Shown here: positions 19,525-24,600 of the stretch, one piece after another
Numbering within the stretch: the first letter of the stretch is position 1
Layout of the letters: each line of letters starts with the position of its first letter
Source: Alloascoidea hylecoeti
Taxonomy: Eukaryota
DNA: 64,000 bases
Assembly (NCBI GenBank): GCA_001600815.1
Contig: BCKZ01000003.1
Location: 748,581 to 812,580 of the forward strand
Direction: 5' to 3'
Notes under the pieces: model-generated
What the model saw: the letters and a program-made list of their open reading frames with translations, nothing else
Database searches by the model: none
What the model was told of the DNA's origin: nothing
Position numbers and translations under genes: made by a program

Positions 19525-21600
19525 CTATTTAGCATAATTATCTATAGGTGGGTAATTAACAACCTCAGGTTCACTGCTGCTTGCTTCATCTAGAACGGGT
19601 GGTCGCCTAAACCCTTCAAATTTCTCTCCGTGAGCCTTACTTATGGCCCATAGGACACAATATCTAAGAGCTAGAATAATAAAACCAGCAAGGATTCCTC
19701 CAAAAGGTGCAATGACAAATGCTCCAAAAGCACTCCAATCATCAACGTAGAGACCATTCCAAAGTAGTAGTAACCGTCCTCCATCTCTAGCATTACCTAG
19801 ATATATAGTTCCAAAAATGAAAACCCCTAATAGACCTCCTAAGCCACCACCAACAACTTCCCAGCCCGTTAAGAACCAAAATTTATCCGAAAGGCCTAAG
19901 AACAAAATAGGTATAACTGAAGAAGAAACCAAATCTGCAATCAAGTAAATTTGTAAAATATCTGCTCCTCTCAAGGCAACAACTATAACTGGAACCATAA
20001 CGATAAGAACAACAACTCTAATATAAATTATGGGAAGTTTGTTTCTGCATAAATCGTTAGACAATGTTGAAACCATTGCGGATTGTAAGGAATCAAATGT
20101 TGCAGTTGATAAAACTACACAAAACACCAAAACAAATCCAACTACCCAACCAGGCATAGTTTTTAAAATGATGAAAAATGAGTTAGCAGCATCATCTGAA
20201 CGTGCCTCCAAATAACCACCCCAAACTGCTAAAAGACCAGTGAATCCCGTGAGAAATAAAAAGACAAAAATAACAACCGATGCAATTGAAGTACCGATTA
20301 ACAAATCCTTATCTGTTCTTGATGCAAAGGTTCTCAACCAAAATCCAGACAAAAAACAGTCATTAGTAGCAATAGCAACCAATAAAATATAAATCAACTG
20401 GCCACCTAATTTGTTGGATTTTAAGTACCCAGAATTTTCGATTAGGTCATGATCAACATCAATCTTGGTACCCATCGCACATGAACAAATGATTAATAAT
20501 AATAAAACCATAACTCCTTGTATATTATCAGTGATAAAACTAACTTTAAAGCCACCAATACATGTATAGATACTAGTAACAATACACTCAATAACAAGTA
20601 CTGGCGTTGCTGAAACTCCAGTCAAGCTTTGAATACATGATTGCATGGCAGTTAATTCGCCAACCATATATAAATACATGGTTAAAATGGTAAAAGCTGA
20701 TAAATATAATCCAGTGACGACACCAAATCTTTGGAATACCCATTCTGTTAATACAAATCCATCAGGACATTTTTTCCTTATGAGTGGTCCCAAAAATGCA
20801 AAAATCATGATAGGTAAGGCAGAGGTTATATTATAAACCAATAAGCCTTCCAATCCCGCAATTCCTGCGATTTCAGGATATGTTGTTAAAATTCCAACTC
20901 CCATTGCTATAAGTATTGGTTAGTTCATGTTCACAACTTACAAATAGTTTTATAATTGAAATAAGACAAGATAGCAGCTTGGTTTCCTCACGCAAGTATT
21001 AACTTGATCGAGTTAAATACGGTATGATCTCAGCAGATAACTTTGTTAGGTTAAAAGCACCCGTACCAGCTACTGAAATAGTAGGTAATATATAGAACCA
21101 GAGATTGCTGCCTAGTTAGGTGATTCTACTCTCTTATACATTTATGAAGGAAACGAGTTTGCATATCCGACCTATTTTTCGTTAATAAACAAATTACAAA
21201 AACCAAGTAAACGCACCCGAAGCAATGAAATTCAAAGATAATGGAATAGCTATTGGTGTTAGCTTGATCCTATTGAAACAAAAACAAAGTCCTTATTTAT
21301 TCATTGTTCATACCCTTTTGCGTCTTATTTGAGGATAAGAATGTATCATTTGATTGTTTCCATATTGCGATACCGACACACACAACACTAAAACAGATTT
21401 ATTTATTAGTCATGTTCATCATCATTCTTATTGATTAAGAATCCACATCGAGGAGGGAGTATGCTCCTTGTGTAGGTTTAGAACCAAAGATTAGTTCCTT
21501 GTTCGATTGGCACAAGCCACCATAGGTTCTGTACTTACAGTATGATTGAGTAAGTGGTATAAATTATAGCATTAGATGCTGGATTTGATAATTCACCCAT
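19525..21600 (-). CDS. DUR31: Dur31-family sodium:solute symporter (thiamine transporter); exons 21600-21539, 21387-21314, 21249-21217, 20906-19525 (516 aa)
   Basis: Spliced N-terminus MGELSNPASNAIIYTTY..FLSSNKTQKAIPLSLNFIASAMGVGILTTYPEIA. Many TM segments. Motifs GGFKVSFITDNIQG and FLSGFWLRTFAS. All three introns keep the frame, and intron 3 carries a TPP aptamer. Confidence 0.9.
20975..21072 (-). ncRNA. TPP (thiamine pyrophosphate) riboswitch aptamer in DUR31 intron 3
   Basis: Minus strand reads tagctggTACGGgtgc..gcTGAGAtcataCCGTAtttaaCTCgatCAAGTtaatACTTGcgtGAGgaaaccaagctg. It shows P1, P2 (TACGG/CCGTA), the invariant CUGAGA, P4 (CTC/GAG), P5 (CAAGT/ACTTG, UAAU loop) and the GCG junction. 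Confidence 0.95.
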
Positions 21601-24600
21601 TTTTGTTTGAAGATCCGCGAGGAAAAAGTAAGAAGAATAAAATTTTTTCTTATTGAATAACTCTGTTATGGTGTAATAAGATCAGGTAAGCATGCATATG
21701 CCATAATTGGATCGGTAGTCATCAGACTCACCAATTAGGCTAATTAAATATTATTTTGACACTAAAAAACTCTCCATTACAGCGTTAACTTCAAACCTTT
21801 GTGTATACACATGCTCTGTTATAACTAAAAGTCTGAAATATACATATAGTTTTCATTTCATACATAAAACTCGTTTTTGTGACAGACATCAAAGCAATCA
21901 ATTAAAACCTTAAATTAAATTCTACCCCAAAGAATAGATCACCCCGAAACTTAAAAAGGATATATCTAATTTTACCTATTTATGAATTCAAAATAGTTTA
22001 GAAAGTAATGATGGTGATTTAATTCCGTTCTATTGTCTTGAAATAGCATAATTGAATCATCTGATCTACTATTACAGTAATTGCCTATTCTATATCTGTG
22101 CTCTTACTCTGCTCCATGAACGGGATCACTGTATAAATTCTCTTACTTATTCAACACCAAATGGCTTTGGCAATGAACATTTTATATATGGTAGCTTGTT
22201 ACTTAACTATAACTATAAGATTACAATATTGATTATGATTAACGATGTTTCGGTTATAATTAATTATGAGGTATTAAATATAATTATATCAATTGAAAGG
22301 AATGTTTAGTTTAGTATCTAAAGTTAAGTGCGACTAGATTCTTGTGGATCAAAATAACCTATTTTTAGCTTTTGTCAGGTAATAGTTTCTGACACTTTAT
22401 GACCTTACAGCTATAGTGAGATATTATCTTATATGAAGACTAAAAAAAAATACTAGGATAACTTGAAACTTTCAATTGCAATTGCCAAAAGGTATACATC
22501 TTTAGCGCGGTATATTGATTAAAATTAAACTTAAGGTGGTGGTATAAAGATTTATAATTATAATCAACTTCTAGAAATATAGTATATAAACGTATACATA
22601 TACGATTATAATCTGTTATAACAGTCTTGCAGCGGTTATAACTTATAATTATTTGTAACTAAAGCTTATGTAGTTTAAGCTGTTAATGCATTAGAATTAC
22701 CATTCAGTGACATTCACAGATCTATGTTGGTACCTGATATTCATTATGTTTCATTGGATTCAGTAGATATTATCAAATAATTAAAGCTCTGGAAGAGATA
22801 TACGGTATCACAACCGAGAATATATATAATCCCAACGGATATGTCTCAGTGTTTTGAAAGTCTAGCTATACCATTTACGTCTCAATTTATAATTAATTAT
22901 AAAAATGGAAATCTAGATGTCAATTATATAAGACTGCAATGATCATGTCCATTGTCCAATAAGTTCTGAAGTATAGGTTGTTTTATGACTTAAAACTCTG
23001 CTCAACCTTGATCTGAATAACATCATGCTTATGAATAGCTATAAAATCAATAAACATTTATATACAATTTTATATATATGATCCATGTTGTAGGAGATAT
23101 CTGGAGAATACATATTGAAATTGACTTATAGTCAAGGTTAATCTGTCATGTGAAAAATTTAAGAGAGGAATGCAAAAGTTATAACACAATTATAACATCT
23201 TTTTAAAATTATTAATAAAATTTAGACTTTACTAGATCAAATATTAAACTATACAATGCTAAGACGTTCAACACTTCTGTGGCCTCTAATTTCATATTGG
23301 AAACAAGGAAAAAGGACTATTTTAAGAAATTTTCGATCGTGTAACATATTTACGTTTCCTTACAACTTTTAAATGATCAGAATTAAAACATGGGAACTAA
23401 GAAACCGTTTTAATACCCCTAAAAGCCAGTCATTCCAAAAGAATTATTTGATTACATATATACATATGAATGTGTAAAAATGAAGATCATGTTTCTTTCC
23501 AAAGTTTTTCATAAACTAAAAGTCGTTAATTTATTAAATACCATAGTTTATTAATTATCACTGCATTGGAATTGAAACAAACTGATATACCAATAGAAAT
23601 TGTGAAGATTCAGAAACCAAACCCAGCATATTGTATTAGTGGATATATCGAAGTATGATCAAGATATATATGGTTTATAGATGATGTTTTAGACAAATCT
23701 TTAAATTGTTACCAAATGAAGCTTACAACGTCTGTTTCGTGTGTGCTAGCCGAGTATTGTAGATGACTAAACTAAATGTGAGTACTTCTACTTGTGGAAT
23801 TTTGAAACTTAAGTATTACCACGGCAGATAAATGTATGTATAAGCATATAATTAGTGTCGCGCCATTCATATGATTCCCTGATTGCAATTGGGAGATGCG
23901 GTCAAGAGAATGTATAATAACCCTGGTTAATGTGTTCAAATGTAACGGACTCTATTAAAAGCTAACTAGTCATGAACATGAAGTTTTCTCAATAACTGTA
24001 GTTGTATAGAAATGCAATAATGCAACAGAAAACTTATAATATGTTGAGATTTCGAGTATCCACAATAACCCATTATAATTATTAATTACAATATTTTGTG
24101 TTAAGTTACTATGAACCTCGACCGATCGCGAGCAAGCTTAAGATTAATAGCATTGGCATTGATCGACACATAATGGATACATGGATGGAATACTCAGCGC
24201 CTAGGCCTATGTATACAATAGCAATGGGGATATTCTTAAACAGAATGAAGTTGTGTTGTTAATTTTGGATAACACAGGTTAAATCTTCAATACCGATATA
24301 TCCCCATTGATGATAATAGTAAAATATATTAACTATGTATACGTATGTTTATAGCACTAGCATAACATATACCTATATATATCAGTTATATGTTAAATGT
24401 TATGTATAATATTGATATTATTGATTTTGTGTATTGTGAAATAATCGTCAGATGTATTTAAATCATAGAAAACGTTTAACCTTTAATTTATCGAGTGAGC
24501 AACATAACGATAACATCGCAAATCAGAAGAACCTTATAAGATTTATATTTGGCCGGGCGGGACCATTGACGAGGGTGATTGCTAAATATATTGTTGGCTT

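Follow-up and report, generated by a model that had tools for sequence, protein, structure and literature searches.

The third intron of a DUR31/NCU01977-type transporter gene of Alloascoidea hylecoeti carries a predicted thiamin pyrophosphate (TPP) aptamer, and we put at about even the chance that this intron serves a budding-yeast DUR31 gene as a riboswitch expression platform responding to TPP and works like the riboswitch of the Neurospora crassa gene NCU01977. The gene lies in a 64,000-nt stretch of contig BCKZ01000003.1 (hereafter the window; all positions without a locus name refer to it, and all features described in it are on the minus strand). As in NCU01977, a donor-proximal segment of the intron is complementary to the 3' shoulder of the aptamer's P1 helix, so that P1 and a long-range bridge would exclude each other. 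Two upstream segments compete as partners of this shoulder, one in a 10-bp helix proposed in a preliminary description of the locus (21207-21198) and the other in an interrupted duplex of 24 bp, here called duplex B (21177-21147). The evidence, from control sequences and modelled folding, favours duplex B. To our knowledge, TPP riboswitches are the sole riboswitch class known in eukaryotes, and the way in which they couple ligand binding to the spliceosome is understood in only a few cases. DUR31 is the main thiamin transporter in many Candida-clade species.

From the gene model, the aptamer and the two complementarities with their statistics, all of which the sequence analysis shows, we infer how splicing of this intron and its response to TPP might proceed. 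Without TPP, the 3' shoulder of P1 together with its flanks (approximately 20989-20959) would pair with a segment that lies within the intron's first ~70 nt. The resulting bridge would keep the aptamer open and would tie the donor-proximal part of the intron to the part near the branch site, favouring removal of the whole intron and thus production of a 516-aa transporter. With TPP, P1 and P4 would capture the strand, and the bridge would be lost or weakened. Retention of the intron, or use of a cryptic donor, would then leave in the message an in-frame UAA that lies seven codons into the intron.

The gene (19525..21600) comprises four exons, the stop codon included, and encodes a product of 516 aa. 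The long open reading frame downstream of the aptamer (from 20904) has 1309 homologues at E <= 0.001 among 8000 candidates scored, and those that carry names are Saccharomycotina proteins described as "urea/polyamine transporter" or Dur3-like, at 55-64% identity. The closest protein relative (P0001) is 88% identical, whereas the next relatives reach at most 64% and have introns that cannot be aligned with ours; a further entry (P0121) is the window's own product. Three small upstream exons were placed by tblastn, using the N-termini of 12 full-length homologues against 20601-22300. These are exon 1 (21600-21539), exon 2 (21387-21314) and exon 3 (21249-21217), the last being a 33-nt micro-exon that codes for (A)IPLSLNFIAS and sits between the 64-nt intron 2 and the riboswitch intron. 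Exon 4 (20906-19525) includes the stop. Intron 1 (21538-21388, 151 nt) has the donor GUAAGU, and intron 2 (21313-21250) has the layout GUAUGA...GCUAAC...AG. The riboswitch intron, intron 3 (21216-20907, 310 nt), begins with the donor GUGCGU (21216-21211), which may be a weak one, and has its branch motif ACUAAC at 20924-20919 and its acceptor AG at 20908-20907. The donor G at 21216 is backed by homology, with exon 3 ending in ...NFIAS plus G and exon 4 starting with CA ATG GGA. The spliced coding sequence is open over 1551 nt and aligns colinearly with two homologues (P0006 and P0060), and its product matches the Pfam family SSF (PF00474; 24.8 bits against a cut-off of 22.8). When intron 3 is retained, the reading frame meets the UAA at 21196-21194 after 7 codons. 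Judged from the homologues and the gene model, the gene is therefore the orthologue of Candida DUR31 and N. crassa NCU01977, a family that transports thiamin and carries TPP riboswitches in budding yeasts (Donovan et al., 2018, PMC5997356).

A permissive cmscan of 20600-21600 placed the TPP aptamer at 20967..21074, where it matches the full RF00059 model (1-105) with 49.5 bits and an E value of 1.7e-8. This score lies below the Rfam gathering score of 54.3, so that the score by itself does not assign the sequence to the family. The core columns are nevertheless matched in the alignment: P1 to P5, CUGAGA in J3/2, ACC..., P4/P5 with the L5 loop, GCG, and the GGA junction. P1 is formed by AGUAGC-UGGU (21074-21065) and ACCA-A-GCUGCU (20983-20973), with A20979 bulged, and is longer than the Rfam model shows. 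The 5' strand of P2 begins at 21064 and CUGAGA at 21033; P4 joins 21012-21009 to 20990-20987, and P5 joins 21006-21003 to 20996-20993. The pairs of P1, P2, P4 and P5 were verified one by one. Among the related DUR31 aptamers in loci L001-L012, only two of seven reach 54.3 bits (range 35.5-56.3), and on these sequences a sub-threshold score is typical for the fungal DUR31 group, in which P3a is missing and P3 is variable. Since the gathering score misses the window aptamer and five of the seven related ones, default annotation under-calls the group. By its predicted structure, the aptamer (21074-20967) would be expected to bind TPP.

In the published account of NCU01977, an element near the first donor of that gene, alpha, pairs with alpha', "the 3' shoulder of P1", about 530 nt away, and the pairing was confirmed with disruptive and compensatory mutants (M1-M6; Li and Breaker, 2013, PMC3597705). 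The same source reports that the alpha-alpha' pairing is kept in 16 of 18 fungal orthologues, that the distance of alpha from the donor and of alpha' from the acceptor is usually below 60 nt, and that a shortened P3 leaves regulation in N. crassa unharmed. The switch corresponds to "Type II" of Mukherjee et al. (2018, PMC5882874). Because alpha of NCU01977 had already been defined as pairing the 3' shoulder of P1, an anti-P1 bridge is a known mechanism and not the undescribed variant for which the preliminary description had taken it.

The window gene resembles NCU01977 in that the two are orthologous, the aptamer lies in a coding-region intron at the same position and near the 3' end of that intron, and the expected logic is OFF by way of a premature stop. 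In both genes, moreover, the region before this intron holds a short constitutive intron and a small exon. In the window intron, complementarity to the 3' shoulder of P1 begins within 60 nt of the donor, 9 nt from the donor G for the 10-bp helix and 39 nt from it for duplex B, in both cases with marginal significance; at the other end, the acceptor AG is 70 nt from the end of alpha' (20978) and 50 nt from the end of duplex B (20959). On the other hand, the window intron measures 310 nt and its loop about 210 nt, compared with introns of ~600-900 nt and a loop of ~530 nt in the NCU01977 type. The NCU01977 type also shows at least 11 continuous pairs, whereas the window offers two competing candidates without such a run: no more than 10 contiguous pairs, two of them GU, or the 24-bp interrupted duplex, in which the longest run is 8 bp. 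The GC-rich alpha consensus RGCGGYRRY is absent from the window intron, the nearest sequence being AGGCAGCAA at 21113-21105 with only 6 bp.

In the preliminary description, the alpha candidate CUUGGUUUUU (21207-21198, intron nt 10-19) was paired with GGAAACCAAG (20987-20978), which comprises the last nucleotide of the P4 3' strand, J4/1 and, from the 3' strand of P1, the six innermost nucleotides. The eight Watson-Crick and two GU pairs of this helix are present exactly as claimed, in the order CG UA UA GC GC UA UA UA UG UG. The second pairing can also be formed as described: UAAUUUGUU (21196-21188), which overlaps the in-frame UAA, makes nine pairs with AACAAAGUUA (21047-21038) in the P3 loop and its distal 3' strand, with G21041 bulged, and nests within the first helix. 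The calculated energies are -9.6 kcal/mol for the 10-bp helix and -3.8 kcal/mol for the nested helix alone.

The 10-bp helix is only marginally beyond chance, with 4-11% of shuffled or natural controls matching it. Of 3000 dinucleotide shuffles of the upstream part of the intron (142 nt), 318 contained an ungapped helix of -9.6 kcal/mol or lower against a 31-nt target surrounding the P1 3' strand, and 146 contained one no more than 60 nt from the donor. Among 1009 natural 60-nt tiles of the window, 40 had a helix at least as good. A statistic tailored post hoc to the combination of both helices gave 17/500. Unconstrained pairing of the whole upstream part with the 31-nt target (RNAduplex) was matched by 321 of 2000 shuffles and was dropped as not significant.

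Duplex B joins 21147..21177 (intron nt 40-70, with the core GUUUCCUU at 21154-21147) to 20959..20989. Its core pairs with GAGGAAAC and covers the 3' end of P4, J4/1 and the first nucleotides of the P1 3' strand, while the rest of the duplex extends over the outer P1 3' strand to 14 nt past it. The duplex and the 10-bp helix are mutually exclusive because both use 20987-20982. RNAduplex, applied to the upstream part of the intron and the 36 nt after L5, selects this duplex and not the 10-bp helix, with 24 bp, interrupted, at -21.8 kcal/mol. Controls matched this value in 15 of 1000 shuffles and in 8 of 721 natural window tiles, and when 33 target windows in the remaining intron were compared, the P1-3' zone came out as the best for the upstream part.

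Folding of the intron with nearest-neighbour models ranks the two candidates in the same way. The core of duplex B occurs in 0.98 of 1000 sampled structures, and the minimum free energy (MFE) structure contains the duplex; the 10-bp helix has a pair probability of 0.0 and occurs in 0 of 1000 samples. Ensemble energies of the 310-nt intron are -67.6 kcal/mol unconstrained, -65.8 with duplex B, -59.4 with the 10-bp helix forced, -52.6 with the nested helix added, and -57.3 with the ligand-free aptamer forced, although such models are unreliable for a 310-nt RNA of 30% GC, so that these numbers rank the candidates and prove neither. The MFE structure also predicts a donor-to-branch "zipper" (21207-21180 with 20938-20915), which was matched by 339 of 2000 shuffles and was rejected as not significant.

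The anti-P1 logic of the preliminary description, in which the P1 3' strand is either in P1 or paired with a segment near the donor, has been proven for the N. crassa orthologue (PMC3597705) and fits the layout of the window, but the particular helix chosen is not the best-supported partner: duplex B is rarer in controls and accounts for 98% of the modelled ensemble, against 0% for the 10-bp helix. We consider it unlikely that CUUGGUUUUU with GGAAACCAAG, together with the nested P3-insert helix, forms the functional TPP-sensitive bridge. The 10-bp helix is real and contiguous, begins 9 nt from the donor and covers six of the ten paired nucleotides of the P1 3' strand, and one of the related introns discussed below (L001) has a 9-bp helix, GCACUAUUU with GAAUAGUGC, in the same register (zone positions 4-12, vs 4-13 in the window). 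The two-helix statistic likewise speaks for it, but the individual controls match the helix too often, and the modelled ensemble avoids it. Moreover, the core of its 5' strand, UUGGUU (21206-21201), is also complementary to AACCAA at 20921-20916, which overlaps the branch motif ACUAAC; AACCAA is present twice, once within the 3' strand of P1 and once at the branch site, and the MFE structure uses the branch-site pairing. The similar U-rich intron start of a second related locus (L004) cannot pair with its own P1 3' strand. As for the nested helix, its role in a bridge finds little to recommend it, given its weak energy, a cost of ~7 kcal/mol in ensemble energy when it is forced, and the harmlessness of P3 truncation in N. 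crassa (PMC3597705).

The upstream strand of duplex B also includes GUCGGA (21171-21166), a candidate second donor that resembles the GUUGGA of Candida parapsilosis DUR31, and the in-frame UAA at 21196-21194 lies between the two donors. In NMT1 and THI4, nucleotides of P4-P5 mask a proximal second donor in a 5' untranslated region intron (Cheah et al., 2007, as summarised in PMC3597705 and PMC5997356). The window gene is similar to these genes in that aptamer nucleotides would pair with upstream intron sequence without TPP, with the OFF state reached through a mis-spliced mRNA. It is unlike them in that the strand concerned is mainly J4/1 and the 3' strand of P1, in that the intron lies in the coding region, and in that the second donor is only a candidate. 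An NMT1-like masking mechanism ("Type III"), in which the 3' part of the aptamer would pair with 21177-21147 without TPP and hide GUCGGA, and in which TPP would free this donor and so keep the UAA in the mRNA, appears to us quite improbable. The intron length of 310 nt does fall within the 200-400 nt range of Type III (Mukherjee et al., 2018, PMC5882874), with the stop suitably placed between the two candidate donors and GUCGGA inside the paired strand. C. parapsilosis does use its non-consensus second donor GUUGGA, but according to the published description this use is not thiamin-dependent, and Ogataea polymorpha has a single donor (PMC5997356); GUCGGA itself is predicted from its sequence.

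We then compared the window with related introns. A scan of metagenomes yielded 80 related loci, none above 64% protein identity, and no relative was found in a scan of genome contigs. Sixty loci were counted as aptamer-bearing, 56 by a regular expression for the 3'-half motif of the aptamer and 4 by a cmscan match. The intron position, NF[IV]AS plus G followed by GT, is the same and in the same phase in 52 of these 60, and the other eight are cut off upstream. In a positive control, 27 of 61 sequences were parsed and the rest skipped; among the 21 parsed sequences from non-yeast loci, 15 were matched by no more than 5 of 300 shuffles, and they showed the alpha of the published GCGGCAGC type paired with UGCUGCCGC. 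One of the yeast-like loci (L008:2648-2998) is a 351-nt metagenome intron that has GTATGT as its donor and GTTGGA as its second donor, and in which a stop follows after 58 aa; these features fit the published C. parapsilosis DUR31.

Two tests were applied to the window and four of the yeast introns, a wide one that sets the upstream part of each intron against the 36-nt zone and a narrow one, the closer of the two to the model of the preliminary description, that sets the first 70 nt against a 16-nt target. In the wide test, shuffles as good numbered 15 of 1000 for the window and 10 of 1000 for L001, and Fisher's combined p over the five yeast introns was 0.009. For three of the five zones the cognate upstream part was the best partner (binomial 0.058). 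Ensembles modelled without ligand show the intron's first 80 nt as the main partner of the P1-3' zone in the window (0.74), L008 (0.88) and L009 (0.60), and in L008 the zone is predicted to be paired with intron nt 27-57 at a probability of 0.7-0.9. In L004, L005 and L006 it pairs with downstream sequence. Taken together, these comparisons suggest that some yeast DUR31 introns may have an extended anti-P1 duplex, and they do not single out the 10-bp helix. In a mirror search of the P1 5' or P1 3' zone against the branch-proximal 130 nt of seven introns, only L005 stood out, in one of 14 tests: the partner of its P1-3' zone lies 50-75 nt before the branch site (-25.5 kcal/mol; 5/500 shuffles as good).

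Several observations weigh against an NCU01977-like switch in this intron. Besides the frequency with which controls match the 10-bp helix, the six yeast-like introns with aptamers have heterogeneous layouts. Two of them (L004:2591-2727 and L005:2530-2668) show a mirror layout, in which the aptamer starts 24-27 nt after the donor and lies 270-330 nt before the acceptor. L001, L006 and L009 have long 3' parts, and only in the window and L008 is the aptamer near the acceptor. In the wide test, L008 (123/1000), L009 (442/1000) and L006 (832/1000) were not significant singly. The narrow test gave 209/2000 for the window, 221/2000 for L001, 485/2000 for L006, 398/2000 for L008 and 1649/2000 for L009, with a combined Fisher p of 0.12 over the five yeast introns, which is not significant. 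The definitions of the zones were chosen after the window data were known; all the statistics are post hoc, and they are modest. Finally, the graph distance from donor to branch site in sampled ensembles is the same, with a median of 23, whether or not the aptamer is formed; this is due to the zipper, itself not significant, and to the fact that P1 can form alongside the outer half of duplex B. The model itself thus predicts no TPP-dependent change in proximity, and the step by which a bridge would bring the donor near the branch site is one that we infer from analogy.

These points bear directly on the view that the complementarities arose by chance in a U-rich intron of 30% GC and that TPP acts in another way. 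For example, an aptamer that folds 48 nt before the branch site could interfere with recognition of that site or of the 3' splice site. We rate this explanation as rather unlikely. It would account for the modest p-values, for the heterogeneous layouts of yeast DUR31 introns and for a predicted donor-to-branch proximity that is independent of the state of the aptamer, but it sits poorly with the proven anti-P1 pairing in the orthologue (PMC3597705), with the finding that only about 1% of each of two kinds of control match duplex B, and with the combined result of the wide test over five yeast introns. The U-rich run after the donor deserves mention here as well. Over their first 20 nt, the riboswitch introns of the window (21216-21197) and L004 (2591-2610) resemble each other (GUnnGUUUACUUnnUUUUU), although the proteins are only 58% identical, and the inability of this stretch in L004 to pair with its own P1 3' strand hints at a role of the run that is independent of pairing. 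One such role could be that of a protein-binding enhancer for the non-consensus donor, an idea familiar from work on Nam8 in Saccharomyces cerevisiae.

The NCU01977-like reading is at variance with the view taken so far of yeast DUR31 riboswitches. Donovan et al. (2018, PMC5997356) call their mechanism "currently unknown", and they consider a long-range interaction of the N. crassa kind "unlikely" because the intron is only 351 bp long. The same authors report that deletion of the riboswitch from the C. parapsilosis intron abolishes splicing, which is what a splicing bridge borne by the riboswitch would predict. The DUR31 genes of C. parapsilosis and O. polymorpha are like that of the window in that the intron is short (351 nt in C. 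parapsilosis), the aptamer precedes a single acceptor, and retention leads to a premature stop; the window gene differs from them by two extra upstream introns and by its non-consensus donor GUGCGU. A parallel outside riboswitches is provided by RPL7B, in which an intramolecular helix shortens the effective distance from donor to branch site and acts as a splicing enhancer, and an exclusive alternative structure regulates it (PMC12311795). The regulator in that case is a ribosomal protein, whereas in the window the alternative structure would be the ligand-bound aptamer.

More generally, it is possible, if somewhat doubtful, that short budding-yeast DUR31 introns (310-351 nt) use a TPP-sensitive duplex between their first ~30-80 nt and the 3' shoulder of P1 with its 3' flank. 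Such a duplex, interrupted, AU-rich and lacking sequence conservation, would be the counterpart of the alpha-alpha' pairing in Neurospora. If this were true, the published view of long-range pairing as unlikely in yeast DUR31 introns would be overturned, the requirement of the riboswitch for splicing in C. parapsilosis would be explained, and the Neurospora mechanism would be general for DUR31 across Ascomycota despite a complete turnover of the pairing sequences. The presence of an aptamer in the DUR31 intron of budding yeasts (PMC5997356) and the anti-P1 long-range bridge (PMC3597705) are both already published. An anti-P1 bridge in a short DUR31 intron of budding yeasts (Saccharomycotina) may be new, as we did not find one in the literature searched. 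Likewise, no later mechanistic paper on yeast DUR31 riboswitches was found in that literature, which covered only a minority of subscription journals, and PMC11683625 mentions neither DUR31 nor splicing. Rather than a discovery, the locus offers a concrete hypothesis with two candidate partners that is open to mutation tests.

Two further observations concern the surroundings of the aptamer. About 30 nt upstream of it, at 21113-21096, lies a degenerate copy of the P1 5' strand (AGGCAGC-AAUCUC-UGGUU, vs AGUAGC-UGGU in P1), in which GGCAGC could pair with GCUGCU (-8.5 kcal/mol) and UGGUU with AACCA (-3.4 kcal/mol). This copy is a possible third competitor for the 3' strand of P1. A cmscan of the 64-kb window at gathering thresholds gave no match to any Rfam family. 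The next gene downstream, on the same strand (19415-18411), encodes a myo-inositol oxygenase (PF05153, 404 bits).

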